A DNA stretch of 64,000 nt from a virus. Lineage: Duplodnaviria > Heunggongvirae > Uroviricota > Caudoviricetes. The stretch covers positions 43,752 to 107,751 of IMG/VR virus record IMGVR_UViG_3300045988_163275. The stretch is one strand, 5' to 3'. The notes below the pieces were generated by a model. The model searched no databases, had not been told where the DNA came from, and was given only the letters and a program-made list of their open reading frames with translations. How positions within the stretch are numbered: the stretch's first letter is position 1; each line of letters opens with the position of its first letter. Below, piece by piece: positions 1 through 64,000 of the stretch. A program made the position numbers and the translations under genes.

Positions 1-374
1 AAAGCGGCCAGCAACATCGCCAGAGAAGACTTCAGCCCGGCGATTTCATGATCTTTGCTGGCGTTGGTTTCATCTGCCTTGACTGAATCCAGTGAGCACT
101 TCGGCTTGCTTACCATTTCCAGAGTTGCCTGAAGTTTGTCGGCGCGTTCTTTCTCTTCCAGATACGCTTCGCCGAAATGACGCGCCAGCATCACAATTTC
201 AATCGGATCATCAATCATGCTTGAGAACTTGAGAACGCTGAAAAGGCGGTCAATAGGGGAGGCGTCGTCTTCGTGACCAACCACAAGACCCATGATCTCA
301 ACCAGTTCGGCCGCACCAACTTTTTTAATCACGCTTTCAACTTTGGCATTAGTTTTTTTGCATTTTTCACACAT
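1..374 (-). CDS. hypothetical protein, 3' part runs off the left edge of the window
   Basis: Minus-strand ORF starting at ATG 372-374 (MCEKCKKTNAKVESV...) with AAGGAAG RBS; not in ORF track because no stop within window. Confidence 0.4.
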   Translation of the reverse strand, partial: MCEKCKKTNAKVESVIKKVGAAELVEIMGLVVGHEDDASPIDRLFSVLKFSSMIDDPIEIVMLARHFGEAYLEEKERADKLQATLEMVSKPKCSLDSVKADETNASKDHEIAGLKSSLAMLLAA

Positions 375-392
375 GTGTTCTTCCTTATGCTT

Positions 393-410
393 TTAAACAA
401 GTTGTTTTCT
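393..410. promoter_or_regulatory. class-2 palindromic motif TTAAACAAGTTGTTTTCT
   Basis: About 20 bp upstream of start of left-edge gene; same motif upstream of cobT-like, dnaB-like and parA-like genes. Confidence 0.45.
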
Positions 411-582
411 TAATTGTTTAATTGTCTCAAATTCTATGATGATGTGAAGAGTTGCATTAAGGCGAAAAGACACGCAAAAGGAAAAATCAGGCATACCAGA
501 CATTTATTTAAAGTGGCATTCATAGCAGAATGTTCTCATTGCCGAAGTTCTATTCAGACGTCAGTCCCTAAGAGAGAGCAAA

Positions 583-1542
583 ATGTTTGGTAATCTTTTC
601 AAAACGGAAGAAACTAAGGCCCGGGAGGGCTTGGAGTCTCATTATCAGAAAGTCATGAGCTTCGTTGCTGAAAATGATCTACATGAAGCATGGGAAAAAA
701 CACGCAATATCATTTTTCGAAATATGGAAGTTAGAAGCTACATCACGCAAAACGGCGCGTTCGATCGTAACGATTTTTACTATAAGTCAGCCAAAGAGAA
801 GCTTATTCAAAGCGCCTTCACTTCATACCTACTCATAAAAGTTTTACCTCAGTTCTATGAAATGCATCTCACCACTTTGAAAAGAAAAGAAAAAACACTC
901 ACAACACAGGATGAATACGGGGTCTGGAACTTTGACAAGTGGTTTGATGAAGTAGACTACTTTTATGACAAGGTAGTAAAAGAGAAAGTTTACGATTGGA
1001 TCGAAGAGAACACAGGCCGGCTCAACAACCTTTGGTTGGCAGAGTCGGAGGACAAGAATGCCTGGGGGCGGCCAGTTTACTTTAAATTCCAGTTGCCTGA
1101 ACAATTTGATCGCTGCGCAATAAATCACATTATGACGGTGGTAGACAATACACCAGAACCTGAATTACCTGAGTACACTTCGCTACTGACCGGGCACGAA
1201 TATGAGCATTTTGTCGCTGGGGAGTTTATGAAGTATGGATCCGACACCCAAGTAACTAAGGGCAGCGGCGATCACGGTCTGGATATCCTTGTAACCTATA
1301 GAGAAGTTCGAATGGCTGTTCAGTGCAAACACTACCAGTCTAAAGTAGGCAACAAAGCTATTCAGGAAGCATTTTCCGCGAAACAGTTCTACGATTGCTC
1401 CCTCGCAATAGTAGTCAGCAACAGCGAGTTTACCCCTCACGCCAGACAAGCAGCCAAAAAACTGGACGTTTATCTGTATCACCATGAAGATATACACTTA
1501 ATAATAGACGCCATTAATAATTGGCTGGATGCGCCGGAGTGA
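583..1542 (+). CDS. Mrr-like restriction endonuclease domain protein (N-terminal unknown domain + C-terminal PD-(D/E)xK Mrr_cat-like)
   Basis: C-terminal segment GSGDHGLDILVTY...VQCKHYQSKVGNKAIQEAFSAKQFY...AIVVSNSEFT resembles Mrr catalytic domain; plus strand among minus-strand genes. Confidence 0.55.
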   Translation: MFGNLFKTEETKAREGLESHYQKVMSFVAENDLHEAWEKTRNIIFRNMEVRSYITQNGAFDRNDFYYKSAKEKLIQSAFTSYLLIKVLPQFYEMHLTTLKRKEKTLTTQDEYGVWNFDKWFDEVDYFYDKVVKEKVYDWIEENTGRLNNLWLAESEDKNAWGRPVYFKFQLPEQFDRCAINHIMTVVDNTPEPELPEYTSLLTGHEYEHFVAGEFMKYGSDTQVTKGSGDHGLDILVTYREVRMAVQCKHYQSKVGNKAIQEAFSAKQFYDCSLAIVVSNSEFTPHARQAAKKLDVYLYHHEDIHLIIDAINNWLDAPE

Positions 1543-1775
1543 AGATTGAGGGGCTAATGCCCCCCCCTATTCGTCGGTTAAAAGAACCCGAGGATGCCGC
1601 CCACTGGAACAATGAAAACTCCCACGACACGCGCAAGTGTCACTCCGGCATGAGACTGGAGATCGCCATCGTTCACAAGTTTCACCAGATTCATGATCCA
1701 GCCGCTAAACAAAAAAACGGTAAAGCCAACAATCATCAAGGTGAATTTCTGGAAGTTCCATTTCATACAATAGCC

Positions 1776-2369
1776 TCAGTCACAGCAGAAGGAAGATCCG
1801 GAGTCGCAGGTCGAGCTGGAATCGTGTCCATCAGCATCCCATCCAGAGAGACAGGAGGTCGTTCGGGCAGGGGGGTCATCTGCAAGGCCGTGGTGGCAGT
1901 GGAAGTAGTTGTGCCCGGCATCAAAAGGCTCTGACCGGCTGGTACGGTAACCGCTGCCAGAGTTGCCAAAATCACTCCGTAGGCCATTGGCTTCAGTCGA
2001 TTTCGTTGAAAATTTTCCATGAGAACTGTCCTTGTGTGTCCGGGTTTCACGCAAAACACGAGAAGCAACGCTATTACGCACCTTCTCCATGCCTACTGTC
2101 GTGCCCAGATTAGCTATGGCGGTAGCTTGCGCATTAATGCGCTTCTCCAGTTCAAACACTCGTTCTTCCAGTTCCGCAAGGCGTGCGGAAACACGACCAC
2201 TAAACAGCTCGGTCAGCACCAGGCGAATTGAACGGGGACGTTTATTGAAAGAAGTGAAAGACGTTTGACGGGCCATGTGGATTCCATTCAGTGTCAGAAA
2301 GAGTTGCGGCTGGCCAAGCCGCCTTTTGGCGTTCCATCCTGGAACCGTACCTAACCGGTACTTCGTCAT
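1776..2369 (-). CDS. hypothetical protein with coiled-coil segment; C-terminal half low complexity, possible frameshift
   Basis: ORF with ARLAELEERVFELEKRINAQATAIANL heptad-like region; a second frame (1763..2068) overlaps. Confidence 0.3.
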   Translation of the reverse strand: MTKYRLGTVPGWNAKRRLGQPQLFLTLNGIHMARQTSFTSFNKRPRSIRLVLTELFSGRVSARLAELEERVFELEKRINAQATAIANLGTTVGMEKVRNSVASRVLRETRTHKDSSHGKFSTKSTEANGLRSDFGNSGSGYRTSRSEPFDAGHNYFHCHHGLADDPPARTTSCLSGWDADGHDSSSTCDSGSSFCCD

Positions 2370-2426
2370 CCTGACGATTTATAAGATACCTGATTTATTA
2401 TAGTAGGTAAATACTTACTTATCTTT

Positions 2427-3023
2427 TTATGACAAAAACCCAATGTCATGCTTGTGAGGCATATCAGCTGCGGAATAGGCGGCGATCTTCGCCAGACGGT
2501 CACACATTTCGTTCTCGCGATGACCTGCATGGCCTTTAACCCACTTCCAGCGGACATTATGACGACTGGCGGCCGCGTCGAGACGTTTCCAGAGATCCAC
2601 GTTTTTGACTGGCTTCTTCTCAGACGTGATCCATCCGTTACGCTTCCAGCCTTTCATCCAGAGCGTCATGCCGTTTTTAAGATACTGGCTGTCGGAATGC
2701 AGGATCACGTTGCAGGGGTACTTCAGACGCTCCAGCGCAATCAGGGCGCCCATCATCTCCATCCGATTGTTGGTCGTGCTGTGGAAGCCCTCAGAAAGCT
2801 CGCGCTCTTCGCCTCGATACTGGAGAACGATGCCGTAACCGCCCGGCCCGCCCGGATTTTTGAGGCAGGAGCCATCACTGAATACTTTTACGGTTTTGAG
2901 CTGGGGATTGAACTCGACTACGGGTGTGTTGAAATTGGTACGGGAATGCTGGTGGGTTTGGCATCTGGCTTTAGACTTCGTGCGGCAGCCAGTGCGTTGC
3001 CGGACTGGGTTCTTGGTCGTCAT
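2427..3023 (-). CDS. rnhA: ribonuclease H (RNase HI type), with N-terminal extension
   Basis: FSDGSC...NPGGPGGYG...[16 protein letters not shown]...HSDSQY...[18 protein letters not shown] matches RNase HI catalytic motifs. Confidence 0.85.
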
Positions 3024-3599
3024 TTTGGCTCCAGAATCGTGCGCCGCGACGATTTTTGTTTTCTCGCGCGTGTGCGCACGCGTGCGTGTAAATAATAAAA
3101 AATTTTATAAAAGAAAAACTTACTTCCCAGAACAGGTTTTAATAAAACCTGAACTGAACGAACGAAGTGAGTGAAGTTCACCTCGAACGAAGTGAGAGGT
3201 TGTCTTTTCAGGTAATACTCTCCCAGGGAGGTGAGTACAAAATTTCCTCACCAACCTGGTCGTTTCATAACCTGAAAAGTTATGACCTAAGTCTACTGCC
3301 AGCTTAGGCTTGGGAAGTTATGGATGACAGCACCCCAGAACCGAGATCTTCCCACACTTTATGAAGGGGAGTACTGGAATCAACCTCTCGAAACACTCCA
3401 GACTCGACAATCATAAAGTGACCCTTCTCTCTGCTCACTTTGGTTCCCCCTTCCCCAACCCCTAAACGGTGCTGGTTCTACGCTGGTAGTGAGCTTTTTT
3501 AAACCTGACGCCAGTGACGCAATCCCCCACCCATCAGGTCGAGCTGCCGAAAGTATCCGGAAGCGGATAGATTGTATCACTGGTTAGTGGCGCTTTGAA

Positions 3600-3617
3600 T
3601 GGTAAGTACTTACCTAT
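3600..3617. promoter_or_regulatory. class-1 palindromic motif (GGTAAGTACTTACC core)
   Basis: Perfect palindrome in intergenic DNA; member of a family with about 20 copies. Confidence 0.45.
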
Positions 3618-3847
3618 TATATTGATTGATTAATTTCTCGCCCATGCAGCTGGACATTCAGAGCAAACACCTCATTGATCAGCTCACCCAACAACTGCTC
3701 CACCAGTTCTATGTGCTCGCCTGAATGAAGACACTTGAGCGACCATTCGTAGAGACTGAAAGCCTTATCGCGATCTTTCATCATGTCGCGTATCTTGGCC
3801 AGAAAATCGCTCTCAACGAGCGCTACGACGTTCGTCGGGTATATCAT
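3617..3847 (-). CDS. hypothetical small protein
   Basis: 76-aa ORF, no recognizable motif. Confidence 0.3.
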   Translation of the reverse strand: MIYPTNVVALVESDFLAKIRDMMKDRDKAFSLYEWSLKCLHSGEHIELVEQLLGELINEVFALNVQLHGREINQSI

Positions 3848-4049
3848 GATAATTTTCCTTACTGTGGTTCATAAAATCGATTCTAGAGCGTCTGGAGAGG
3901 GACTCCAGTGGGTTCTGGAGGTGTAAAACGGTCTGGGAGTTGTTTGGAAATCACGTCTTAAAAAGCCTGCGTCTGTATATATTAATAATTAGTACTTAGT
4001 TATTTATATATACGGAAGCAGGTTCTCAAACTAACTCCCAGACTGGTGT

Positions 4050-4643
4050 TTACGCTGCCTTTTTACGTGGTCTCTTCTTCCTGACAACATTGGCAGGGTC
4101 ATAACCACCCAGCTTTTTCATCACCGCCAGCGGTATCTTGCTGATGGTGTGCCCAGCTTCCTGACAGTAGCCACGGAAGATAAGCAACATGCTGCCACCA
4201 GGGTTGATGTTCACCTCCACCAGCCCAAGTTCAACATCCGGCTCAACGAACGCCACGCGGCCGCCAGACAAGATGACGGTTTCGTTGGCGCATTCAGCCG
4301 CACGCTCGTACCACTGCGTATCGAGGGATTGTGGTATCAGCATGACCGTCGTCACTCCACGCGCCTGCTCGCGAATGGCTGCGTCTATCCAGGGGGTGAT
4401 TTTGGAGTAGGGCGGGTTAAGGAACGCCACAGTGCCAGGTTCTCCCCAACTGCACTTGAGCGCATCACGCTCAACACCGATAAAGTTCGGCAGGAGAGCA
4501 TTATCTTTGTTGCAGGCGACGTCCACATCGAACTTTACGCCTATGTAACGTTGGATGGCGACAAACAACCACTGCGGTGTGCGCCAAAGGTCGCGAAGAG
4601 AGGCATCACGCTCTCGCTTTTTGATTTTTTCGGCTGCGATCAT
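4050..4643 (-). CDS. phage-type DNA N6-adenine methyltransferase (Dam-like)
   Basis: FLNPPYS catalytic motif and overall phage Dam-like pattern; palindromic motif 12 nt upstream of ATG. Confidence 0.75.
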   Translation of the reverse strand: MIAAEKIKKRERDASLRDLWRTPQWLFVAIQRYIGVKFDVDVACNKDNALLPNFIGVERDALKCSWGEPGTVAFLNPPYSKITPWIDAAIREQARGVTTVMLIPQSLDTQWYERAAECANETVILSGGRVAFVEPDVELGLVEVNINPGGSMLLIFRGYCQEAGHTISKIPLAVMKKLGGYDPANVVRKKRPRKKAA

Positions 4644-4654
4644 TACTTTACTCT

Positions 4655-4676
4655 GATAGGTAAATACTTACCTATT
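4655..4676. promoter_or_regulatory. class-1 palindromic motif ATAGGTAAATACTTACCTAT upstream of Dam-like gene
   Basis: 8-bp inverted arms ATAGGTAA/TTACCTAT, 12 nt upstream of start codon. Confidence 0.45.
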
Positions 4677-4797
4677 TTTTCATTTAATCCAACGGATAGC
4701 AAACAAAGAAGAACGCGCCAGATTCGCAAACGGGAAGCTCTCTGGCGCGTTTTATCGATGCTGGGTAAGCCAATTCATACCCAGCATCCTAAAGCTC

Positions 4798-5670
4798 TCA
4801 GGGTGCTTTAGATCGTGCAGAGGAACATTGTTCAATGGAATACTCCGCTATGAATTTTTTGACGATCGGCGACTCTTTATTAAGCGTTAGATTTCCACCT
4901 TCTCTGGTGGCAATGCCTGTGGCCGGAAACACAGCCATCATCTGGCCAGCCTGAGTCGAAGCCGTGTTAAGTGGATATGGTTTCTCCGGGTAGCTCATTA
5001 GCGCCAGTTTGATGCTATTGCTGGTCGCCGTGTTCGTATCAAGAATATGGCGCATTGCGATTACCGTGTAGACGCTGATTTCCGGGCCACCACTAAACCA
5101 GTTCAGGAGGTTTAAGATTTTGTCTTTCGCTTTGACCGGCGCGCCTTCAAATGCGGCAGTAAAGCGCTCACTATCCAGACCGGCTGTCACATAGAACGAT
5201 TCATCCTTACCCTCCAGCGTGAAGCGAGGTTTGGTCGGCGCACGCTTTGATTGTGCCTTCTGGTGTTTTGGCTGCTCTTCTTCAGGTTTAGGCCCAGACT
5301 CCACTGAAGGTAAAAGCGTTGGAGCTATATCGGTGGTCTCAGCGCTTCGAGCATCAAGTTCAGGTGTTGGCTCGTCCACTATCTCCGCAATAGGGCCACG
5401 CTCTGGCTCCTCGACCTTCACCGATTCGTGTGCAATCTCAAGCTCTTCCAGAACGCCACTCAGATCGCCGGTAGAGCTGACATTCATGACTTCATCTGCC
5501 ACCGCCTCGACTGGTTTTGCGATTGCATCATCCAGACCAGAAAGAAGATCGTCGATCTCGTCGACACCGCTCATTTTCGCAGCTTTCTGAACCGGTTCTT
5601 CGAGAGATTGCAGCATTGCAGTCAATTCATCCAGGTCATCGTTTTTAACAATGTTTGAAACTGCGCTCAT
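4798..5670 (-). CDS. hypothetical acidic protein
   Basis: ORF; start placed at ATG 5668-5670 preceded by AAGGAG; acidic N-terminal half. Confidence 0.45.
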   Translation of the reverse strand: MSAVSNIVKNDDLDELTAMLQSLEEPVQKAAKMSGVDEIDDLLSGLDDAIAKPVEAVADEVMNVSSTGDLSGVLEELEIAHESVKVEEPERGPIAEIVDEPTPELDARSAETTDIAPTLLPSVESGPKPEEEQPKHQKAQSKRAPTKPRFTLEGKDESFYVTAGLDSERFTAAFEGAPVKAKDKILNLLNWFSGGPEISVYTVIAMRHILDTNTATSNSIKLALMSYPEKPYPLNTASTQAGQMMAVFPATGIATREGGNLTLNKESPIVKKFIAEYSIEQCSSARSKAP

Positions 5671-5798
5671 TTTTAACTCCTTATGTTTTCGTTGGTGCAT
5701 TTCCGCGTTTTGGTTGAGCTTATTCTGGCAAAACCTATCAGGCAGAAAAGTCATAACTACAGGCAGTTAAAGGAACTGGAGGCAAAGAAAAAGCGCCA

Positions 5799-6353
5799 TC
5801 AGGCGCTTTCGAATGGGAGTTTGAAGAAGCCGTATTTCTCTCGGGCTTTGAAGAAACACTGCATCATCAGATCAGTATCGTAGAGAGCACTGTGGGCTTT
5901 CTCACGGTCGTAAGTGAACCCAAGTGAGAATGCCAGCTCTTCCAGGCGTGGGCGCTTCCCATCCTCGGTAGCCCACAGGGAAAATAGAGTGTCAACCAGA
6001 GGGATTTCTGGCAATTTCACTCCATAGCTTCCGAACTCGTGGCGAATGAACGGAAGGTCAAAAGCCTCCCCGTTATGGGCGACTAACGCGCTACATGCCC
6101 CCATATATGCAGCAATCTTACCTGCGTGATCAGCCAACAGCGGTTCAGCAGCCAGTTCTTCCAGAGAGATACCATGTACAGCCTGCGCCTTCGGATCGAT
6201 GCTACGACGCGGGTTGAAGCGCATCTCAAGGCTGTCAATGCGCTTCTGGGTTTCCAGTTCATAACGAGATATCGCGATTTCGATAATTTTGTGGCCGGAT
6301 GTGAAGTCCAGCCCCGTGGACTCAATATCGACGCCACCGACAATCGTGGTCAT
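5799..6353 (-). CDS. DnaQ-like 3'-5' exonuclease (DEDDh)
   Basis: Exo motifs VDIESTGL, HNGEAFDLPF, HSALYDTD. Confidence 0.75.
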   Translation of the reverse strand: MTTIVGGVDIESTGLDFTSGHKIIEIAISRYELETQKRIDSLEMRFNPRRSIDPKAQAVHGISLEELAAEPLLADHAGKIAAYMGACSALVAHNGEAFDLPFIRHEFGSYGVKLPEIPLVDTLFSLWATEDGKRPRLEELAFSLGFTYDREKAHSALYDTDLMMQCFFKAREKYGFFKLPFESA

Positions 6354-6362
6354 TGGTACTCC

Positions 6363-6782
6363 TTACAGCTTCTTCGCGCCTTTCAGCAGTGCGCCACGCA
6401 CAAACTGAGCAGCCTTTTTTAGTGCGTCCTCGCCGCTTTCGCAGACGACCGGCTCACGCCATTCGCCCGTTGACGTGTTGAGGAGCTGAATTTGGTTAGT
6501 CTCCAGGCAAACGGACACATACAAAACCGTACCGCCCGAGAGTTTGAGATGCATAGGAAACAGAGAGCGCTTGGTGCCGCCATTGAATTGCGACATCGCC
6601 GCATTAATGGCTTCACCAACCTCTTCCCCAACAAGACCTTGAACGGACTCAAACACTGCTCGGATAGCCAGACGTGCTTCACGTTCACTCATTAAGGAAC
6701 GGGATTGTTCGTCAGCAATACGGATCAGTGCTTCAATCGCTTTGCGATCTAATTCATCCGACAGGGGAAGTTCATCTATCAT
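6363..6782 (-). CDS. hypothetical protein
   Basis: ORF; start placed at MIDELPL ATG with GAGGA RBS. Confidence 0.4.
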   Translation of the reverse strand: MIDELPLSDELDRKAIEALIRIADEQSRSLMSEREARLAIRAVFESVQGLVGEEVGEAINAAMSQFNGGTKRSLFPMHLKLSGGTVLYVSVCLETNQIQLLNTSTGEWREPVVCESGEDALKKAAQFVRGALLKGAKKL

Positions 6783-6845
6783 TCTGTTTTTCCTCAATTT
6801 ATTTAGCGTGTCTTATTGTCACACTGCCCAACAGGGGAACAACAT

Positions 6846-7490
6846 TCAGTGGAAGGTCACTCGTCCTGTTATACGGCTCTCGATGTTTTCAGTGGCTCTT
6901 TCCAGCACACGCAATACCGATCTGGCTCGCGCCTCAACCGTGCGGCACTTTTCAGAGATAATGAAAACCTGCAAATCGCCGGTATGGGGAAGGGCGCTAA
7001 TTTTCGTCAGCTCGCCACACATAAGTGCATCGATGCGAGCAACATAGAGACGGTCAAGCGATCCTCGCTGGGGACGCGCGAGATCTTTGCTGGAAAGCTC
7101 AACGCCCGGGCGAAGACCCGCTATAGCATTAAAGTTGGAAATGGCCGCTTTGTGGCAAAACTGCTCAATGTCGAGAGCCAGCTCGATGCAGCGGTCTTCG
7201 TTGGTCTGGCCGACCAGGTCAAGCGTATAAGCCATGACATCGGCTGGCGTGCGGTCGATGACAAAACCTTCAACGCCGCGGGTGATCATCTCGATGTGTC
7301 TGGCAATCTCCATCTGAACCTGAAGACGCTCGTAAAGGGGCAAACGCTCGCCAACCTTCACCCCCAGACTGCTCATCAGCTTGCCAACACCGGCATCCAC
7401 ATACGGAATGCCATAGTGCGCATCGATGTACCTTGCCAGGGTTGTTTTCCCACTGCCCTGTGCGCCAGTGATTCCAATCCGGTAATCCAT
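6846..7490 (-). CDS. P-loop nucleotide kinase (putative dNMP kinase)
   Basis: N-terminal Walker A GITGAQGSGKTT; size and context next to DHFR and ThyA. Confidence 0.6.
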   Translation of the reverse strand: MDYRIGITGAQGSGKTTLARYIDAHYGIPYVDAGVGKLMSSLGVKVGERLPLYERLQVQMEIARHIEMITRGVEGFVIDRTPADVMAYTLDLVGQTNEDRCIELALDIEQFCHKAAISNFNAIAGLRPGVELSSKDLARPQRGSLDRLYVARIDALMCGELTKISALPHTGDLQVFIISEKCRTVEARARSVLRVLERATENIESRITGRVTFH

Positions 7491-7966
7491 TACGACCTTC
7501 TGTATACGATCTGCAAAAAGCCAGGCTCATCCTCATTTGCACGTTGGGTATAAGCCGTTTCGACTGGTACGAACCCTAAAGAACGCATCATTGGCGCCGG
7601 GAAGAACGCATCCGCGCCCGACACATCCACGCCAATATGCGACAGCCAGATCTCTTCAACGTGTGGCATAAAGAGCGAGTAAATCTGCCCGCCACCAATC
7701 ACCCAGACCGGATCTGGTAGTTTTAAAACGTCATCGATGCCAGCGGGGTAGAAACCATTGGGGATATAGCCACGAGAGCGCGTCAAAACGAGGTTATGGC
7801 GCTCTGGCAGCGGGCGTTTGAGACTTTCCATCGTCTTACGTCCCATCACGACAGTGGCGTTTTTGGTGAGTTGTTTGAACAGTTTCAGATCGGTCGGGCA
7901 ACGCCAGGGAAGTTCGTTGCCAATGCCGATTTCATAGTTGCGGCCGACAGCTGCAATCATCTTCAT
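7490..7966 (-). CDS. folA: dihydrofolate reductase
   Basis: MIAAVGRNYEIG...LPW...VVMGRKT...VIGGGQIY pattern typical of DHFR. Confidence 0.85.
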   Translation of the reverse strand: MKMIAAVGRNYEIGIGNELPWRCPTDLKLFKQLTKNATVVMGRKTMESLKRPLPERHNLVLTRSRGYIPNGFYPAGIDDVLKLPDPVWVIGGGQIYSLFMPHVEEIWLSHIGVDVSGADAFFPAPMMRSLGFVPVETAYTQRANEDEPGFLQIVYRRS

Positions 7967-8376: not shown

Positions 8377-8377
8377 A

Positions 8378-9493: not shown

Positions 9494-9660
9494 ACAAGAT
9501 AAGTAAGTACATACCTATTATTTTATACAAGTTTATCTGTCAGAAGTGTGTAAGGCTAGGAGGGGAGTAAAAAAAATGGTGGCTCTTCGGCCACCATTGC
9601 AATGAGCAATTAAGAACTTGGACAATAAAACACGCCAAGGCAATATATAATGATAAGTAC

Positions 9661-10765: not shown

Positions 10766-10804
10766 TCATGGTAATAGATAAGCACTTACCTATCAATTAT
10801 CAAC

Positions 10805-54053: not shown

Positions 54054-54133
54054 AAAGGTTCCTCAATTCCTTCTTCGCGCATATTCTTACAGAAAAATAA
54101 GTATGTATCTACTTATCATTGGCGGCGTGCAAT

Positions 54134-55318: not shown

Positions 55319-55405
55319 GTGTTTTTTCTTTTGTGGTTTTGGCAAAAGAGAAATTTGTTCTCTTCTGGAGACAGGCGTGGAGAGTGTTTCCCCACGCCTT
55401 CTTTT

Positions 55406-56746: not shown

Positions 56747-56764
56747 GTGCTTTCCTTTGATACT

Positions 56765-56782
56765 TAAACAAATTGTTTTCTA
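56765..56782. promoter_or_regulatory. class-2 palindromic motif upstream of dnaB-like gene
   Basis: ttaaacaaattgttttct about 20 bp upstream of ATG. Confidence 0.45.
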
Positions 56783-56806
56783 ATACTAAAAAATCCAGAT
56801 AGGGGA

Positions 56807-57532
56807 TCAACAGAATCGCCGTGCTTCTTCCAGTTCTTCCGGGAAATGCGCATAAATTACACGCTCAGGTACGATTTCCATCAACCAGACTGCGGAGAAG
56901 ATGATGCGGATGCGTTTATCTCGGGTAATGCCACGCAGACGCTCCAGAATCCACTCAAAATAGCGTTCCTGAATCGGGTCACGCTGCATGTCTCCAAGAT
57001 GCTTAAAACTCACCAGAGAGTCATCCAGACGGGTTACAGCGCGTTTGGCTAACTTCTCTTCGAATATCTCGATCAACTCGGGCTGCCAGAGATGCTGGGG
57101 GCGCGGTAATTTGTCCCACAGCCGTCGTGCAGCTGCGGAAAGAACGGTGGAGATAAAGTAGTCGTATGAGCAGCAATAGCGGTCAGCAAACTGGCGTGCT
57201 TTCCATAGAGACGTTTTATTGGCAGTCGACAACTCCTGATATGGCACACGCTTCAGACCGGTTGTGAATGGAGCCGTCTCATAGTGTTCACGACCATGCG
57301 ACAGCATGATGTATGAGTACTGGCGCTTGTATGCCTCAGTGAAAAGGCATGTGGCCATGAGCGGGTGCATATCGCGATAGTCAAACCATTTGGTTTCGAA
57401 CAGTTCCGCCTCGTCCTTGCAACGTGACAGGCCAATGTTCTCCGCTACCCACTTATCCATGACTGCGGTGTTCCACTCTGTCATGAAATCGTACTGGTCA
57501 TTGTCGATAGTGTTGAAGAAGATCTGGCTCAC
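56807..57532 (-). CDS. hypothetical protein
   Basis: 241-aa ORF. Confidence 0.45.
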   Translation of the reverse strand: MSQIFFNTIDNDQYDFMTEWNTAVMDKWVAENIGLSRCKDEAELFETKWFDYRDMHPLMATCLFTEAYKRQYSYIMLSHGREHYETAPFTTGLKRVPYQELSTANKTSLWKARQFADRYCCSYDYFISTVLSAAARRLWDKLPRPQHLWQPELIEIFEEKLAKRAVTRLDDSLVSFKHLGDMQRDPIQERYFEWILERLRGITRDKRIRIIFSAVWLMEIVPERVIYAHFPEELEEARRFC

Positions 57533-57544
57533 ATGATTCCCTTT

Positions 57545-57570
57545 AATAGGTATGTACTTACTTATCTAAG
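57545..57570. promoter_or_regulatory. class-1 palindromic motif upstream of 56807..57532 gene
   Basis: aataggtatgtacttacttatctaag. Confidence 0.4.
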
Positions 57571-57814
57571 TGGGCGAATCATAGCGACTGGAGATATTTT
57601 TGGGAAGTGGAAACGGAAGGGAGTTGTTCTGGTGGGTGTCTTTTAAAAGACCTGCTTCCGTATATATTTAATAAGTTACTTATTATTTATATACAGAAAC
57701 AGGCATAACTTGTCGTCTTAGACACCCAGAAGCTCTACACTTTGAGCCTGTAAAATTGATTAAAAACTTATGTGTAAAATAGAACGCATTAGTCAGTAGC
57801 TAAGAGATGCAATA

Positions 57815-58582
57815 ATGGACGATTTATCGGTATACGCGAGATCATTGGATAAGGCTAAATACTATGTTTACTGTCTCTATGATACAGAAGACAAGATGAA
57901 AAGACCGTTTTACATAGGAAAAGGCAAATCGACTCGTTGTCTCGATCACATCAAGTATCCCGATGACTCTCCCAAATCCATGCGGATCAAAGAACTTTTG
58001 GCTAATAAAAAATTAGGCATAGATATTCTTCGTCATGGTATGGATGAAACCACAGCCAAACTTGTTGAGGCGACATGCATCGACCTTATGGGGGTCGGAG
58101 AGCTTACGAATAAGGTACGAGGAAGTGGTTCCATGATGGGCAGAATATCACTGGACGCCTACCATCACTTAGTGCTGCAAGAGGAATCTGAAATTGCTCC
58201 TGAGCACGCCGGTCTTGCCTTCCTGCTAAACAGCACCTACAAGTCAGGAATGTCCGCTCTGGCATTATATGAAGCTACGCGTGGCGTATGGGCAAAGGTT
58301 CCAAGAGACGAGAATCTCAAATATGCCTACGCTACATATGGGGGCCTGATAATGGAAGTTTATCAGATTGAATGCTGGGTCAAAGCCGGTTCTCAGCAGT
58401 ACTTTACAAGGGATATAGCTCTTGGCCCCGACACAAAACGTTATGAATTTGTTGGCAGAATAGCCGATGAGCATATTAGAAAACTGTATGTAGGCAAATT
58501 AATCAAGAAGCCACCAAGCTACGGCAGCCCTTTTGTGAAGGTTGGGGTGGTTAGGAATGAACATAGTGTTAGCGCGGCATAA
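57815..58582 (+). CDS. GIY-YIG nuclease domain protein
   Basis: YVYCLYD...PFYIGKGKSTRCLDH GIY-YIG motif; isolated plus-strand gene. Confidence 0.55.
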   Translation: MDDLSVYARSLDKAKYYVYCLYDTEDKMKRPFYIGKGKSTRCLDHIKYPDDSPKSMRIKELLANKKLGIDILRHGMDETTAKLVEATCIDLMGVGELTNKVRGSGSMMGRISLDAYHHLVLQEESEIAPEHAGLAFLLNSTYKSGMSALALYEATRGVWAKVPRDENLKYAYATYGGLIMEVYQIECWVKAGSQQYFTRDIALGPDTKRYEFVGRIADEHIRKLYVGKLIKKPPSYGSPFVKVGVVRNEHSVSAA

Positions 58583-58634
58583 AGCTGACACTGTACTTAT
58601 GCATTGGCGCAATGTACGCGCCAATGCATAATTT

Positions 58635-58994
58635 TTAACCTTTCTTCATCAACTCTCGTTTGATTTCGTCGGTACGCATCGTGACGTCGGCAGCAGTGAT
58701 CGCCTCGTTCAGTTTCACGATGTCTTCGATTTCCTGCGGTGACTTCTCTGCCAGATGGAAAATGGCTGCACGAATCACATCAGAACGGGTGAACTTCTCA
58801 AAACGAGGGATAAACTTCATCATCTCCAACAGTTCGAAGTACTCGTCTTCCAGCGACATTGTGCGGCTTTTAATCTTCTCTTTGCCACGAGTCGGACGCC
58901 CCTGCGGTCTGACTGGCTGGCGCAGTGGAGTGCTGCTTTTGGCCGGTTCTTTAGGCTCATTGCGCTTTGCAAGGTCTCCCATTCTCATGGACAT
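58635..58994 (-). CDS. small partition partner protein (ParG/ParB-like, putative centromere binding)
   Basis: 119-aa basic N-terminus, immediately downstream of parA-like gene with overlapping stop/start. Confidence 0.45.
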   Translation of the reverse strand: MSMRMGDLAKRNEPKEPAKSSTPLRQPVRPQGRPTRGKEKIKSRTMSLEDEYFELLEMMKFIPRFEKFTRSDVIRAAIFHLAEKSPQEIEDIVKLNEAITAADVTMRTDEIKRELMKKG

Positions 58995-59659
58995 TATTCT
59001 TCCTCCAGACTCAAGATGTAATCTACAAACTCTTCGAACTCGGCTTCTGCCTTCTTATCGCGTTCAGCGCCAGTCATTTCAAAGATAGAACGACCTGCCT
59101 CTTCCGCATCGTCATAAACGTTACGGTTGTACAGGTTAACCGGCGCAGCCTCGATGCCGAAAGTTTCGACAATTTCCTTCGCGGCCAGAATACGTGATAC
59201 CTGGGAAGGCAATGACGGACACTGGTTTATTACCGCGCGGATCTTAACTTTCTCGTTCACATTGCGAACGTTGTCGATAATCGGGTCGATATCACGCAGA
59301 GATTTCAAATCACGACGTTTAGGGCGCAGCGGGATGATGATTACATCAGCCATAAGCATCGCCAGACGCTGAATTTCGGAGTCAAAGCCACCAGCATCTA
59401 CCACTACATAATCAGTTCGCCCCTGAAGCGATTTAAGATGTTTGACGATGTCGTCCTGCACATAAGCGAACGGGATCAGTTCAAGATCTTCGTTCTGGCG
59501 ACGGTCTTCACACCAGCTGGTCGTGGTGCGCTGGATATCGATATCGGTGACGTGAACCTTCTTTTTCTTTTTAACTTTGAGACATACCGCAATTTGCTGG
59601 GCAACGGTAGATTTGCCTGGGCCGCCTTTTGTGCCGCCAACCACAATGATCTTGGTCAT
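58994..59659 (-). CDS. parA: ParA/ParF-type partition ATPase
   Basis: Deviant Walker A GGTKGGPGKST, Walker B DYVVVDAGG. Confidence 0.8.
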   Translation of the reverse strand: MTKIIVVGGTKGGPGKSTVAQQIAVCLKVKKKKKVHVTDIDIQRTTTSWCEDRRQNEDLELIPFAYVQDDIVKHLKSLQGRTDYVVVDAGGFDSEIQRLAMLMADVIIIPLRPKRRDLKSLRDIDPIIDNVRNVNEKVKIRAVINQCPSLPSQVSRILAAKEIVETFGIEAAPVNLYNRNVYDDAEEAGRSIFEMTGAERDKKAEAEFEEFVDYILSLEEE

Positions 59660-59692
59660 TGGTGAGTTTCCTTTGCGTGAATTATTGTCGTA

Positions 59693-59709
59693 TGAAACAA
59701 CTTGTTTTC
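59693..59709. promoter_or_regulatory. class-2 palindromic motif upstream of parA-like gene
   Basis: aaacaacttgttttct about 35 bp upstream of ATG. Confidence 0.45.
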
Positions 59710-59978
59710 TTATATGCGATATAGCCTAAATGCCTACGGCTGCGGTGTAAAGGTTATTTAGTAGGTTGTTATTGCCTATTGCTAGTAACTGTTTTCATTT
59801 GTCTGTTGAAAAAAGTGACAATCACCTCTATATTACGAGTACGGTAAATTGCCGTACACAATTTGATGACACATACGCAATGGGCTATAGCCCAGTTAAA
59901 TAACCTTTGAGTCGAAAACTCAATTTAAATAGAGAGCAATGATGGCCTTCCTACATCACCGGCCATCAGGGGGTACAC

Positions 59979-60248
59979 ATGTCCGCACTGAAAAAGCAGC
60001 GCATCGATTTGAGATTAACCGATGACGATAAAAGCATCATCGAGGAAGCTGCCGCAATGTCTAACCAGAGCATTACCCAGTTCATGGTTAGCAGTGCATC
60101 CGAACGTGCCGTGAAGGTGATAGAGCAACACCGTAGACTGGTTCTAAGTGAAGAGTCCTGGAATCTGGTTATGGATGCTATAAGCAATCCTCCGGCACCG
60201 AACGACAAGCTGAAACGAGCTGCCAATCGTCTGAAAAGCATGGAGTAA
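59979..60248 (+). CDS. DUF1778-type antitoxin (TacA-like)
   Basis: 89-aa protein with RIDLRLTDDDKSIIEEAA N-terminal pattern directly upstream of a GNAT gene. Confidence 0.75.
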   Translation: MSALKKQRIDLRLTDDDKSIIEEAAAMSNQSITQFMVSSASERAVKVIEQHRRLVLSEESWNLVMDAISNPPAPNDKLKRAANRLKSME

Positions 60249-60255
60249 TTTACTC

Positions 60256-60777
60256 GTGAGCAATACGACGATCGAGATTTTCTCTGGAGAGAAAGATTAT
60301 GATCTAAACGGTTTTGATTGCGGCGAAGAGTCGCTAAACGCATTTTTGACCAACCACTTAAAAAGACAGCATGAGGGAAAAATTCTTCGCGCTTATGTGC
60401 TTTGCACTAAAGAAGAAATACCAAAGGTATTAGGTTATTACACTTTGTCAGGCAGCTGCTTTGAGAAAGAAACCTTACCTTCAAAGAGTCAGCAAAAGAA
60501 AGTGCCTTATCGGAATGTCCCAAGTATCACTTTAGGCAGACTGGCTTTGGACAAATCTCTTCAAGGTCAGGGGCTTGGCTCAATGCTTGTAACTCACGCA
60601 ATGCGTGTTGTGTACAATGCATCTCTTGCGGTAGGCATTCATGGGCTTTTCGTTGAGGCGTTGAACGATAAAGCCAGGGCGTTTTATAAAAGTTTGGGCT
60701 TTATCCAGCTGGTTGGTAACAACGATCGTTCTTTGTTCTATCCAACAAAATCTATCGAAAAATTGTTCGAAGAATAA
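60256..60777 (+). CDS. GNAT-family acetyltransferase toxin (TacT-like)
   Basis: GNAT fold motifs LQGQGLGSMLV and ARAFYKSLGF; 8-bp downstream of antitoxin, GTG start. Confidence 0.75.
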   Translation: MSNTTIEIFSGEKDYDLNGFDCGEESLNAFLTNHLKRQHEGKILRAYVLCTKEEIPKVLGYYTLSGSCFEKETLPSKSQQKKVPYRNVPSITLGRLALDKSLQGQGLGSMLVTHAMRVVYNASLAVGIHGLFVEALNDKARAFYKSLGFIQLVGNNDRSLFYPTKSIEKLFEE

Positions 60778-60945
60778 TGTGTCCCCCTCATTTGAGGGGA
60801 ACTTCGACATCACCAACCGCAAACTCTCTCTCCCATCGTATTGTGAAAAAGGATTTGGCGTTCGGTTTCTTCGGTCATTACATCGTCATTGCTGATATAA
60901 ATAGGTTCAGCGCCATCGCAGAACAACACGCTGGTGGTCTGTGGC

Positions 60946-61197
60946 TTAATTACGCACCCACTTATCATGCAGCTCACGATGAATGACAGAAGCATCTTTC
61001 TGACGTATTTCACTGTTCGTCTCATTCACCACTTCCACTGTGCTTTGAAGACGCTTGTTATCTTCCCGCCGTTCTTTCTCTTCCATACTGCGTCTGGCCA
61101 TATACCCGCCATAGGAGTATGCGCCGACAAGGACTAGAATGACGGCGGCCAGAGTGAACAAAGCGGATTTCATTTTGAACAACAGGCCGCCGAACAT
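60946..61197 (-). CDS. small membrane protein (spanin-like candidate)
   Basis: N-terminal TM LFTLAAVILVLVGAY followed by charged region. Confidence 0.35.
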   Translation of the reverse strand: MFGGLLFKMKSALFTLAAVILVLVGAYSYGGYMARRSMEEKERREDNKRLQSTVEVVNETNSEIRQKDASVIHRELHDKWVRN

Positions 61198-61199
61198 AC

Positions 61200-61892
61200 T
61201 TACACTAATCCTTTCTGGTACTTGCGAACCTGGGACCAGGCAATGAATGCTGCCACAAGAATGGTAGCTACGCCAAAGATGATGCGTACCGTATCTCCAC
61301 TGGAGATATTGCCTTGCGCTTTATCCATTGCGGCAGAAACTTGAGGCATAACGTCGGCAATTTGTGCAAGGCCAATACCTGCAGTGACTGTAGCACCTGC
61401 GGTTTCTTTTGTTACAGGAACGGCTTTTACAGCCTTTACCGGTTTGACAATGCCGGCACGCCGCAGACCTTCTTCGATAAGTTCTGGTGTATACCAGCTA
61501 TTGGGGGTTTTCAGCGGACCTCGGCCATTTTCATGTCTAATGATCGCCTCTACCAGCGGTCTTAAGGTCTCGTAGTCATGCAGATCGATAATCATATCTG
61601 GTGCTACTCCAACGGCTTTGGATACCTCGTTCACATAAGCCAAAGTGTTGTTCTCATGTGGAGGCGCCCAGCGTTCGATGACTTCGCGGATCGTATCAAT
61701 GCTGGAGCCATCTTTTGCGCGGCGCTTGTCGTGGTAAGTAATGAGTGTCACTGCCAATGCCCGAATCCCCCACACGGGGTCTTTAAACGTGCAGAAGCGC
61801 GGTTCTGAAGAGTTGTTGACTAAGCCCTGCCACGGCGCTCCTTTATCAAGATTACCGGGGTTGTTATTACGAATGCCTCTCGGAGTTTTCAT
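61200..61892 (-). CDS. putative lysis-cassette protein (possible peptidoglycan hydrolase) with C-terminal TM
   Basis: GIRNNNPGNL...WQG block and position between holin-like and spanin-like genes; start at ATG 61890-61892 with AGGAGA RBS; function not verified. Confidence 0.35.
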   Translation of the reverse strand: MKTPRGIRNNNPGNLDKGAPWQGLVNNSSEPRFCTFKDPVWGIRALAVTLITYHDKRRAKDGSSIDTIREVIERWAPPHENNTLAYVNEVSKAVGVAPDMIIDLHDYETLRPLVEAIIRHENGRGPLKTPNSWYTPELIEEGLRRAGIVKPVKAVKAVPVTKETAGATVTAGIGLAQIADVMPQVSAAMDKAQGNISSGDTVRIIFGVATILVAAFIAWSQVRKYQKGLV

Positions 61893-61905
61893 CCTTGATC
61901 TCCTG

Positions 61906-62241
61906 TTATTGCAATCCATTTTTTACGCCATACGCGGCCAATCCTAAAAGCAGTACGGTAATAATGAACGACGTTATTTTCGAAACAATGCCGCCAAAGA
62001 ACCCACTGGAGATGGTGTCGAGCCGGTTAAGAAGTTTGTCCAGATTGGAGTGCTGAATGCTGTGTTGTGCGGGCGTCATATCGCCAAAGTAGGTTTTGAG
62101 CTGGTCATTGACCTCCTGACCAATTTCCTCGCGTATTTCTTTACCTAATTTGCCTACGACTTCCCGAGCAACGATTGAGGCGATGCGCTCAACCTGTTCA
62201 GTTGTGACTCCCGCCATCTCGTTCGACATGTTTTCCTCCAT
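61906..62241 (-). CDS. holin-like small membrane protein
   Basis: C-terminal TM ITSFIITVLLLGLAAYGV. Confidence 0.35.
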   Translation of the reverse strand: MEENMSNEMAGVTTEQVERIASIVAREVVGKLGKEIREEIGQEVNDQLKTYFGDMTPAQHSIQHSNLDKLLNRLDTISSGFFGGIVSKITSFIITVLLLGLAAYGVKNGLQ

Positions 62242-62289
62242 GAAAAGTCAAATCGGGATGGCGTGTTTATATCATATTTTAACCATTTG

Positions 62290-62315
62290 TAGTAGGTATG
62301 TACTTACCTACTATA
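62290..62315. promoter_or_regulatory. class-1 palindromic motif TAGTAGGTATGTACTTACCTACTA upstream of holin-like gene
   Basis: 9-bp inverted arms around TGTAC. Confidence 0.45.
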
Positions 62316-62362
62316 TATCTTACAAACTAATCGTTGTTAATAATGCAGATATAATCTGCCCC

Positions 62363-62950
62363 TTACTCTGCTGGTATTGTTGGCCAGTCAATATCCGGTG
62401 CCGTTGATGTGTCAATGCGGTTCAATAAAACTCTATACTTCTTCCATGCAGTCAGCAACGATGCTTCTTCCTCCGTTGCAATCTCCAAATCTACAGCATC
62501 CTGAAGTGGCGCAATGTGCTCGCTGGCTACCTGCATCAGACTTTTTTTTGTTTCTTCCGCTTCCCGTATCTGAAACAATTTTTCTGTTTCCTCATCCTTC
62601 TCCCAGGATGTGCCGTCCCACTTCTGATATTCCCCATCCGGTGATAACCAGGTGACATTTTCCGGTAATGGCCCAAGTTCAGAAATAAACAACGCGTCCC
62701 CTGATTCCACGTCATAGACCGTTTTACCCCTGTGGTCTTCAACGAGACTCCATGATTTATTTTCGCTATTGAATACGGCCACGAAGCCAGCAGGTACATC
62801 CGGTGGCGCTATATCCGTAGAATAAGCTGGCAGCCCTGTATGAGGTGGAATATATGCATCACCTTCACCAATAAATTCATTGGTTCCGGCCAACAGATTA
62901 TAAATTTTTATGGTCCGTGGTTGTTCACTCATTGTGAAGTCCATGTTCAC
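62363..62950 (-). CDS. tail fiber assembly protein (Tfa-like chaperone)
   Basis: N-terminal [28 protein letters not shown] and C-terminal WPTIP typical of Tfa proteins. Confidence 0.75.
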
Positions 62951-62952
62951 CT

Positions 62953-63855
62953 CTACTTAATATCAAAGACAGTATGTTGTTTATTGAGTGTATGGGTGTG
63001 AGCACCAACAGTGATGCCCCTTCCGTGATTATATGCGCCAGTGGCGATATTGCTTCCGGTATTTTCCGGATTAATCCGGTGTATATGCGAACCAGGGCGA
63101 AACCGGTTATTAGCCTGATGTTGTATCAGTACATCATCAGCCTGATGTTCAGGGTTAATACAGATCTGCCCTGAACGTGAGCAATACGTCCGGGAATCGC
63201 CACAGCCAATATATTTAGTATCCGCATAACGGCAAACAGAATTACCTGGACAGTATGCATATGTGCTAAATACTGCCGACTGGCGAGATTGTGCATATTC
63301 CCAGTTAATTGCTTCTGTTTTTTTATTAAAGTTATCCCACGCCTGCTTCATCTGCCGGGCAACACTTTCAAACGGCACCTGACCGCATCCGGCCCCCATT
63401 GCAGGGAATACGACCGTTTTTATTTTCCTGTCTGTCGTTGCGTTTTTATTATGCTGAAAGATGGCAAGCAGAGCGGCCCAGGTTGCGTTATATACAGCCT
63501 CTGTTCCGTCAATTGTCAGCGGAACACGCATTGTTGGCGCATGTACCAGCCAGGGGTGATGATTATGCCCCGTTTCAATGACAAATGCAGAACCTACAGG
63601 CTGTTCGCCGAGATATTCACAAATAATATGATTCTGAACGCGGGACTGTAACTGAGTACCGAAGAATGCGGTAATGGCGGCATCAACGCCGCCATCCATC
63701 AAGCCGAAACTATTTGCCGCACTTACCATGCAGTCAAATTCTCTGATTGCTTCAAATGGTTTTCCGACAATATTCACATTGTCTGCATTTGCGAATACTC
63801 GCTTAAATGCTTCAGTCATTTCTTTTACTGGAGCAGAAAGAATGAGATTAATCAT
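62953..63855 (-). CDS. macro domain protein with Cys/His-rich tail-fiber-tip-like C-terminus
   Basis: Macro motifs [22 protein letters not shown] and [21 protein letters not shown]; C-terminal GAHTHTL HxH-like segment; start overlaps upstream stop (ATGA). Confidence 0.55.
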
Positions 63856-64000
63856 GCAAGCCTCACAATATAGTTAAATGCAATGTTTTTGACGGTGTTT
63901 TCCGCGTTACCAGCAGCGTTAACAGTGATGGTGTGTCCATGTGAGCCAATCGCAACGGAGTGCGTATGAGCACCAATACCGACAGTATGTGCATGTGCGC
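63853..64000 (-). CDS. tail fiber protein, C-terminal end only (5' part beyond window)
   Basis: Minus-strand translation ...[48 protein letters not shown] with HxH repeats. Confidence 0.55.

Follow-up and report, generated by a model that had tools for sequence, protein, structure and literature searches.

What kind of element carries, within 64,000 nucleotides, a phage-type replisome with lysis and tail genes alongside the replication, partition and addiction functions of a plasmid? The question is raised by a stretch of IMG/VR virus record IMGVR_UViG_3300045988_163275 (positions 43,752 to 107,751; hereafter the window, in whose own numbering all coordinates are given). We conclude that it is almost certainly 64 kb (approximately 59%) of a phage-plasmid of Escherichia coli belonging to the SSU5/pHCM2 group, about 108 kb in full, i.e., of a temperate siphovirus that persists as a prophage in the form of a low-copy, non-mobilizable IncFIB plasmid. 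SSU5-type elements form the largest known group of phage-plasmids and are common in E. coli, Shigella, Salmonella, and Klebsiella. The element is therefore of a well-known kind and its discovery ordinary, because exactly this group has been described in the literature as the SSU5 supergroup, consisting mostly of IncFIB plasmids that are predicted siphoviruses (Pfeifer et al., 2021; PMC7969092); PD-T4-3 and restriction-modification (RM) systems have also been described in SSU5-group phage-plasmids of E. coli and Shigella (bioRxiv 10.1101/2025.09.12.675607). As seen from a six-frame listing of open reading frames (ORFs) and from composition, the window is gene-dense and transcribed mostly from the minus strand, with a block at 20-30 kb in which G+C falls to 0.40-0.43 and transcription runs on the plus strand.

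The group assignment is carried by the backbone. In megablast searches, the window matched Salmonella phage SSU5 (JQ965645/NC_018843) at 92.9% over positions 4-20673 and at 93.4% over 30425-50000, and by local blastn 41,081 nt are collinear with SSU5 at 80-97.6% nucleotide identity and 44,756 nt with plasmid pHCM2 of Salmonella Typhi CT18 (NC_003385) at a mean of 91.4%. A common collinear backbone is thus present at about 91-93% identity, membership of the SSU5_pHCM2 group being judged here by collinearity and not by weighted gene repertoire relatedness (wGRR). Shared with SSU5 are the gene order of the replication, recombination, nucleotide-metabolism, maintenance, and lysis region, a RepA protein of 92.9% identity, a dihydrofolate reductase (DHFR) identical at 156 of 158 residues, a tRNA-Asn gene, and a dispersed palindrome. 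SSU5 differs in possessing ribonucleotide reductase genes (nrdAB), an Ant/Rha gene, a DUF2971 gene, and an uninterrupted RecA, in having another tail-fibre tip without a Tfa or Macro gene, and in lacking the integrase-PhoH block, the SNF2-DUF4391-type III RM island, and the PD-T4-3, Mrr, YafO, and TacAT genes of the window. pHCM2, an IncFIB, non-mobilizable plasmid, is collinear through the integrase and PhoH region as well; it otherwise differs from the window in the same accessory segments as SSU5, carrying nrdAB and no defence island. Escherichia phage Cyrano (OV696614), an SSU5-like isolate that infects E. coli, has the same gene order, the integrase, a RepA of 90.3% identity, and the palindrome at syntenic sites, and its RecA, annotated at 779 amino acids (aa), presumably contains an intein; its backbone identity is, however, only 77-83%, and it carries nrdAB and HicAB but no RM island.

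Plasmids are the closest relatives. Each third of the window matches between 816 and 981 plasmid records, 765-931 of which are non-mobilizable, mainly from Escherichia, Klebsiella, Enterobacter, Yersinia, and Salmonella, and the closest are circular, non-mobilizable E. coli plasmids of approximately 106-115 kb at 98-100% identity. The three relatives inspected in PLSDB (p1919D62-2, pLAO18, and pHCM2) are all IncFIB and non-mobilizable, and Pfam profiles detected no relaxase or type IV secretion system domain among the window ORFs scanned, in keeping with an IncFIB-type element devoid of transfer genes. Four records of 108-114 kb, namely p1919D62-2 (NZ_CP046008), ET300 unnamed1 (NZ_CP100974), pLAO18 (NZ_OP242248), and the Logan contig ERR3328222_5, are 98-100% identical to the window and carry the SNF2-DUF4391-Mod-Res island at the same site, the three plasmid records being circular. 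They are mosaic, each differing in at least one cargo slot, for example by Rha replacing Mrr, by PsyrTA-like RecQ/DprA genes in pLAO18, or by a frameshifted Res in ET300. The record that matches best is a different one for each third of the window, which is therefore itself mosaic. Among complete E. coli genomes, 279 of 5426 contain matches, at 375 places on plasmids versus 4 on chromosomes. A preliminary description of this DNA, made from its letters alone, had noted a resemblance to SSU5/pHCM2-type elements and proposed BLAST searches of phage and plasmid databases as a check; the identities to SSU5, the collinearity with both prototypes, and matches to SSU5 and more than 800 plasmid records bear this out.

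The remainder of the element can be followed in longer sequences. Outside the part corresponding to the window, NZ_CP100974.1 (111,725 bp, circular) encodes terminase, portal-region, major capsid, tape measure, tail, and tail-fibre genes. An exact-protein look-up of the two genes nearest the window ends led to ERR3328222_5 (107,946 bp), which matches the right 11,048 nt at 100% and the left 11,542 nt at 99.94% identity, and which extends past one window end into tail genes and past the other into genes of the SSU5 backbone. In the European Nucleotide Archive, scaffold_94 of ERZ28597683 (108,066 bp) is likewise 100% identical over the right 11,048 nt, the right end being the only one compared. 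These two contigs are probably the same element or a sibling, and are likely to give its full size. The Mrr protein encoded near the window edge is widespread: its exact sequence was found in 315 assembly blocks, in none of which does the contig exceed 200 kb.

Plasmid replication and partition are represented by a Rep3-type RepA with 19 iterons and by ParA with its partner, which are accompanied by addiction and recombinase genes:
17332..17835, plus strand: upstream iteron cluster, six pattern matches at 17332-17770 and two degenerate direct copies at 17797 and 17819
17875..18930, plus strand: RepA, Rep3/IncFIB-type initiator (Pfam Rep3_N, Rep3_C)
18933..19495, no strand assigned: downstream iteron cluster, 13 pattern matches, six direct and seven inverted
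44614..45717, minus strand: tyrosine recombinase (Pfam Phage_integrase, E 6.8e-9)
45890..46300, minus strand: YafO-family toxin, accessory (Pfam YafO_toxin, E 1.9e-22)
46310..46918, minus strand: 202-aa upstream partner of YafO, accessory
47259..47939, minus strand: PhoH-like ATPase fused to a gp49/66 domain
49681..49752, minus strand: tRNA-Asn (GTT) (ARAGORN; Rfam 76.2 bits)
58635..58994, minus strand: 119-aa partner of ParA (phrog_5111 for the ParA/partner region)
58994..59659, minus strand: ParA partition ATPase (Pfam AAA_31, MipZ, CbiA; NCBIfam ParA_partition, E 3.7e-34)
59979..60248, plus strand: TacA/DUF1778 antitoxin, accessory (Pfam TacA1, E 3.5e-26)
60256..60777, plus strand: GNAT acetyltransferase toxin, accessory (Pfam Acetyltransf_1/7)

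All 19 matches to the iteron pattern WCCACTRTRGDGAG lie between 17332 and 19491, to either side of repA; chance alone would give 0.25. An initiator flanked by repeated sites points to an iteron-controlled Rep3 replicon, of which the upstream cluster is the probable origin, while the downstream cluster is comparable to incA of P1. RepA is 47.5% identical to its P1 counterpart and had no sequence match among solved structures. The preliminary description had called it P1/RepFIB-like and flanked by iterons, which is accurate because relatives are typed as IncFIB and because of the RepA identities to SSU5 and P1. It had further listed a ParA-type ATPase with a small partner and a GNAT/DUF1778 toxin-antitoxin pair, both of which were recovered, and the RepA and ParA assignments, on whose failure in homology searches its interpretation would have foundered, hold in the Pfam and NCBIfam searches. 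The antitoxin gene precedes the GNAT gene by 8 nt, an arrangement consistent with a TacAT module. Beside parA, a search for centromere repeat arrays yielded only short, unconvincing inverted repeats. ARAGORN also called an 81-nt tRNA-Lys at 59591-59671 (plus strand), overlapping the start of parA, which is treated as a probable false positive because Rfam gives it no support.

The tyrosine recombinase is shared with pHCM2 and Cyrano but not with SSU5. It lies in a block (43778-49634) that adjoins the tRNA-Asn gene and also holds an ORF annotated in Cyrano as a putative helix-turn-helix repressor, YafO, and PhoH; SSU5 does not have this block, which in pHCM2 and Cyrano belongs to the backbone. 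The N-terminal, endonuclease-like region of an ORF at 47993-48805 matches PADLOC effector models (PDC-M68A, E 1.4e-22).

P1 is the archetypal phage-plasmid. Its logic recurs here, in that both elements have a RepA with iterons on either side of its gene, partition functions, a site-specific recombinase, addiction genes, and type III RM cargo; P1 is, however, an unrelated myovirus with another gene set, no DnaE replisome of its own, and other iteron and operator sequences.

Phage functions within the window comprise a lysis cassette, Tfa, a tail-fibre tip, and a phage replisome. The cassette (60946..62241; phrog_1026, phrog_873, and phrog_5093) is collinear with SSU5_026-028, and is followed by the tail end:
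60946..61197, minus strand: Rz-like spanin
61200..61919, minus strand: endolysin
61906..62241, minus strand: holin-like gene
62363..62950, minus strand: tail-fibre assembly protein Tfa (Pfam Caudo_TAP, E 2.2e-44)
62953..63855, minus strand: Macro-domain protein, 300 aa (Pfam Macro, E 5.5e-19; phrog_2613, E 2.6e-145)
63853..64000, minus strand: 3' end of the tail-fibre gene, its last ~49 codons, cut by the window edge and read from the sequence

The replication, recombination, and nucleotide-metabolism genes, with neighbouring backbone genes, are:
2427..3023, minus strand: RNase H (Pfam RNase_H, E 6.5e-46)
4050..4643, minus strand: phage Dam-type N6-adenine methyltransferase (Pfam Dam, E 4.4e-37)
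5799..6353, minus strand: DnaQ-like 3'-5' exonuclease (Pfam RNase_T, E 4.3e-21)
7490..7966, minus strand: DHFR (Pfam DHFR_1, E 3.8e-35)
8378..9493, minus strand: thymidylate synthase ThyA, probable start near 9481 (Pfam Thymidylat_synt, E 7.8e-78)
9661..10539, minus strand: MazG/PRA-PH-type nucleotide pyrophosphohydrolase (Pfam PRA-PH, E 3.6e-9)
10805..11374, minus strand: RuvC-like resolvase (phrog_159, E 1.7e-53)
12859..15021, minus strand: SbcC-like ATPase, probable start near 14775 (Pfam AAA_23, SMC_N, SbcC_Walker_B)
15005..16090, minus strand: SbcD-like nuclease (Pfam Metallophos)
30520..32859, minus strand: RecA-like recombinase with intein (Pfam RecA, LAGLIDADG_3, Intein_splicing)
33128..34123, minus strand: 5'-3' exonuclease/flap endonuclease (Pfam 5_3_exonuc_N, 5_3_exonuc)
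34133..35149, minus strand: gp32-like single-strand DNA-binding protein (Pfam gp32, E 7.6e-72)
35810..36370, plus strand: excisionase/transcriptional-regulator-like protein (phrog_2620, E 4.6e-85)
36399..39905, minus strand: DnaE-like DNA polymerase III alpha (Pfam DNA_pol3_alpha, finger, HHH_6, PHP)
40086..41321, minus strand: AAA_5 ATPase, half of a backbone pair annotated 'porphyrin biosynthesis'
41417..43717, minus strand: CobT/VWA protein, the other half of that pair
51327..52649, minus strand: ATP-dependent DNA ligase (Pfam DNA_ligase_A_M, E 5.5e-12)
54134..55345, minus strand: primase, annotated as such in relatives (weak Pfam match, Toprim_2 at 21.9 bits against a cut-off of 22.1)
55406..56746, minus strand: DnaB-like helicase (Pfam)

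Every class of phage gene that the preliminary description had seen coexisting with plasmid maintenance genes was found by profile searches. Its tail fibre and Tfa fared unequally: tfa is intact, but only the tip of the fibre gene lies inside the window, the complete gene encoding 921 aa in the contig identical over the right end. The Macro gene is wedged between the fibre gene and tfa, its start overlapping the fibre stop (ATGA), whereas fibre and tfa are directly adjacent in NZ_CP100974.1. No PADLOC model matched the Macro-domain protein, a predicted ADP-ribose binding protein or hydrolase that could be an anti-defence or moron gene. Rfam places IS009, a candidate E. coli small RNA, at 62403-62601 (minus strand, 191 bits), within the tfa coding sequence. 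By BLASTP, the DHFR corresponds to the SSU5 enzyme (SSU5_083) named dfrA51, which raised trimethoprim minimum inhibitory concentrations when expressed in E. coli and in which residues A6, I13, D26, and S48 have been highlighted (PMC12217456); all four are kept here.

Several observations nonetheless weigh against the identification of the window as part of a phage-plasmid. No capsid, terminase, or tail-tube gene lies within the 64 kb, so that a complete phage cannot be demonstrated from the window alone; a linear stretch of this length gives no reading of circularity, copy number, or inducibility; the collections of phages, plasmids, and complete E. coli genomes hold no exact full-length match; and tail, ParB, or Res genes are frameshifted in some close relatives, so individual members can be defective. 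The element could accordingly be of SSU5 lineage and yet a defective, non-inducible plasmid, a domesticated phage remnant that replicates only as a plasmid and supplies defence genes. Pseudogenes in relatives are consistent with this (in NZ_CP100974.1 a tail protein, ParB, and Res are frameshifted), as is a paper titled 'A plasmid with conserved phage genes' (PMC8969562), the subject of which is a Klebsiella SSU5-like plasmid. We consider such a remnant unlikely, however, given that no backbone ORF of the window is truncated, that all of them are collinear with those of SSU5 and Cyrano, both phage isolates, and that the lysis cassette and tfa are intact; the structural module of this exact element lies beyond the 64 kb inspected. 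A genome packaged in virions, in place of the plasmid form, would be compatible with the deposition of SSU5 and Cyrano as phage genomes of the same gene order; it is quite improbable, since the closest relatives (98-100%) are plasmids in bacterial genome assemblies and the identical contigs come from isolate or metagenome assemblies, and it would in any case be another physical state of the same element, not another element.

Integration into a chromosome, as a prophage or genomic island, is suggested by a tyrosine integrase 4 kb from a tRNA-Asn gene, by the chromosomal location of 4 among the 379 places that match in complete E. coli genomes, and by the type III RM island alone, which was seen once in a chromosome with flanking insertion sequence (IS) elements. 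No tRNA-Asn-derived direct repeats bound the integrase region, however, and this region belongs to the pHCM2 and Cyrano backbone, so the integrase-PhoH block was rejected as a tRNA-Asn-integrated island. Moreover, the element has an iteron replicon and a partition system, and chromosomal core genes, which the preliminary description had named as the flanks that would overturn its interpretation, were not seen: at both window ends the near-identical ~108 kb contigs run on into phage-plasmid backbone and tail genes. Integration is therefore very improbable. Least credible of all is a chimeric assembly of an unrelated phage with an unrelated plasmid, to which the drop in G+C at 20-30 kb might point; that block corresponds to the type III RM island, which at least 15 independent plasmid records carry at this position, and the reading is refuted by the collinearity that SSU5, pHCM2, and Cyrano show with the remaining part of the window.

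As a phage-plasmid of the SSU5 group, the element is distinguished mainly by what has been inserted into its backbone. By local blastn, eight segments are unmatched in SSU5, and all but one of these in pHCM2 as well (411-1579, 11258-12111, 20670-30403, 31393-32667, 45847-46986, 57704-58633, 59755-60824, and 62277-64000). They are swappable cargo, consisting mostly of defence genes. TacAT lies in the segment at 59755-60824, and Tfa, the Macro-domain ORF, and the tail-fibre tip lie in that at 62277-64000. Three nucleases occupy cargo slots outside the large island:
583..1542, plus strand: Mrr-like restriction endonuclease, accessory (Pfam Mrr_cat, E 2.1e-21)
11371..12147, minus strand: HNH endonuclease (phrog_374, E 2.2e-35)
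57815..58582, plus strand: PD-T4-3/CMoRE-like GIY-YIG nuclease (PADLOC PD-T4-3, E 1.6e-23; PDB 9u7u, E 2.5e-15)

In the Mrr slot (411-1579), SSU5 and pHCM2 carry an Ant/Rha-family regulator on the opposite strand; at the HNH site (11258-12111), SSU5, pHCM2, and Cyrano carry nrdA-nrdB, which is missing from this element; and the slot of the GIY-YIG nuclease (57704-58633) holds a DUF2971 gene in SSU5 and pHCM2. The last of these nucleases is a single homologue of full length (residues 11-231 aligned with model positions 11-238 of 256), as expected of the predicted PD-T4-3/CMoRE assignment, a family that cuts DNA modified with hydroxymethylcytosine (hmC) or glucosyl-hmC (PMC12923530). A perfect 14-bp hairpin lies at 58597-58631, between this gene and the convergent parA operon. 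The slot of YafO and its partner (45847-46986) is a gap relative to pHCM2 and falls within the 43778-49634 block, which is missing altogether from SSU5. RecA is interrupted by a 422-aa intein (31402-32667, minus strand) with a LAGLIDADG homing endonuclease, inserted in the Walker A/P-loop between GPPSAGK and T and bounded by C65 and HN486, with T487 following. The exteins are 86-96% identical to the uninterrupted RecA of SSU5; neither SSU5 nor pHCM2 has the intein. Several E. coli plasmids have a LAGLIDADG homing endonuclease annotated at the recA locus.

The largest insertion is the low-G+C island at 20670-30403, in which a truncated BrxR/WYL gene is followed by four further genes:
20690..20990, plus strand: remnant of a WYL/BrxR-family regulator at the left island edge (RefSeq annotation on 100%-identical DNA: 'WYL domain-containing protein, incomplete')
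21024..24359, plus strand: SNF2-family helicase, 1111 aa (Pfam SNF2-rel_dom, Helicase_C; PADLOC C3a139 'HKD+Snf2', E 3.9e-122, full length)
24363..25049, plus strand: DUF4391 protein (Pfam DUF4391, E 7.3e-55)
25078..27045, plus strand: type III methyltransferase Mod (PADLOC MTase_III, E 7.8e-226, full length; Pfam N6_N4_Mtase)
27108..30218, plus strand: type III endonuclease/helicase Res, intact ORF (PADLOC REase_III, 1163.8 bits, full length; Pfam ResIII, RE_endonuc)

Adjacent mod and res genes identify a type III RM system, but one that departs from the plain two-gene form, in that SNF2 and DUF4391 genes precede them. Res is frameshifted in the otherwise identical island of NZ_CP100974.1, whereas that of the window is intact. 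At least 15 plasmid records have the island at this site, and it was found once in an E. coli chromosome, between IS elements. Homologues of the DUF4391 protein form more than 1500 clusters, and the order SNF2-DUF4391-Mod-Res is kept at approximately 45% DUF4391 identity in a Burkholderiales metagenome-assembled genome and in metagenome contigs, where the four-gene loci adjoin AbiE, Kiwa, and toxin-antitoxin genes, i.e., lie in defence islands. To judge from this conserved order, the four genes look like a variant of type III restriction. Two other assignments of the SNF2 gene were considered and rejected, namely DISARM (the NCBIfam DrmD model scored 152 bits against a cut-off of 610, and the island has no DUF1998 or phospholipase D genes) and Hma. 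The DUF4391 protein matched no PADLOC or NCBIfam model, its AlphaFold2 model (predicted local distance difference test score 82) had no significant fold match, and the literature searched held nothing relevant, with no title or abstract naming DUF4391.

The backbone between the cargo slots is marked by a further feature. A repeat scan of the whole window revealed a 20-bp palindrome, ATARGTA-N6-TACYTAT, dispersed over 2403..62311. The pattern ATARGTAWRTNNNTACYTAT, with up to two mismatches, gives 28 strand-matches, that is, 14 distinct sites, against 0.08 expected; two further, degenerate copies were seen only in the repeat families:
2403, 3598, 4656, 9499, 10774, 16206, 20225, 30462, 35701, 47927, 50485, 54097, 57546, and 62292: palindrome pattern sites
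~20550 and ~41380: degenerate copies

Most sites occupy short gaps between backbone genes, where a minus-strand start codon follows 11-62 nt downstream, and an A-run often precedes them. Exceptions are found at 16206 and 10774, which lie farther from a start (~115 nt from that of SbcD and ~235 nt, respectively), at 50485, with no ORF close downstream, and at 20225 and 35701, both internal to the longest ORFs called. The cargo segments are free of the palindrome, except that the copy at 62292 straddles the boundary of the last one. In the window it stands ahead of replication, nucleotide-metabolism, and lysis genes, and in a close relative also ahead of portal, scaffold, major-tail, tail-fibre, and holin genes. 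SSU5 has 14 copies in 81 kb, pHCM2 16 in 86 kb, and Cyrano 10 in 49 kb; unrelated loci totalling 81 kb have none. Conservation of the syntenic copies exceeds that of their 40-nt flanks (89.7 versus 77.4% identity with Cyrano, 90.8 versus 85.3% with SSU5, and 94.2 versus 86.2% with pHCM2), and the changes between them are concentrated in the central six bases. In 2.9 million viral contigs of IMG/VR, the perfect 20-mer occurs in only 26 stretches, all of which align to SSU5-like references at 74-83%, with alignment cover of 55-100% for 25 of them and 15% for the other. On these sequence comparisons, the palindrome is specific to the SSU5 lineage.

The palindrome is probably the site of a dimeric regulator, and may be a repressor operator, an activator site, or a ParB/KorB-like site. 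At half-site positions 4/17, the pairs A-C, G-C, G-T, and A-T occur three, five, two, and two times, respectively, with no strand bias; half-site mismatches are thus not compensated in a strand-specific manner, which argues for the DNA site of a dimeric protein and against an RNA hairpin. As to a role as sigma-70 promoter, promoter-like sites show no enrichment, numbering 14 against 20.5 expected, and only three of the six palindrome sites in 1-20 kb adjoin one. The literature searched contains no description of this palindrome or of an SSU5 operator. Our more ambitious proposal, that the palindrome is the operator of a dimeric regulator controlling most SSU5-type transcription units and that the SNF2-DUF4391 locus is a four-gene RM variant, is a tentative one, to which we give somewhat less than an even chance; such a regulon would have parallels in the C1 operators scattered over P1 or in the KorB sites of RK2.

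The gene anatomy described above was observed directly, and a life cycle can be proposed for it from the biology of P1/RepFIB replicons and of phages. During lysogeny, RepA would fire the origin at the upstream iterons, with the downstream cluster limiting copy number by handcuffing; ParA and its partner would segregate the copies, the tyrosine recombinase would resolve multimers, and TacAT and YafO would kill cells that lose the plasmid (post-segregational killing). Upon induction, the element may be replicated by its own DnaE polymerase, DnaB-like helicase, primase, single-strand DNA-binding protein, ligase, flap endonuclease, and RNase H, with RecA/UvsY-like, SbcCD, and RuvC-like proteins processing the replicated DNA and ThyA, DHFR, and MazG supplying nucleotides. 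Holin, endolysin, and spanin would then release virions built by the structural module that lies outside the window.

The practical value of these results is one of annotation. The element illustrates the swapping of cargo at fixed intergenic slots of a conserved backbone, and carries three restriction-type defences (type III RM with SNF2/DUF4391, the PD-T4-3/CMoRE-like nuclease, and the Mrr-like nuclease), two addiction modules, and a DHFR 99% identical to dfrA51. The lineage-specific palindrome offers a concrete handle on the regulation of SSU5-type elements and, if the proposed regulon is real, its operator would constitute the switch between plasmid maintenance and lytic growth.

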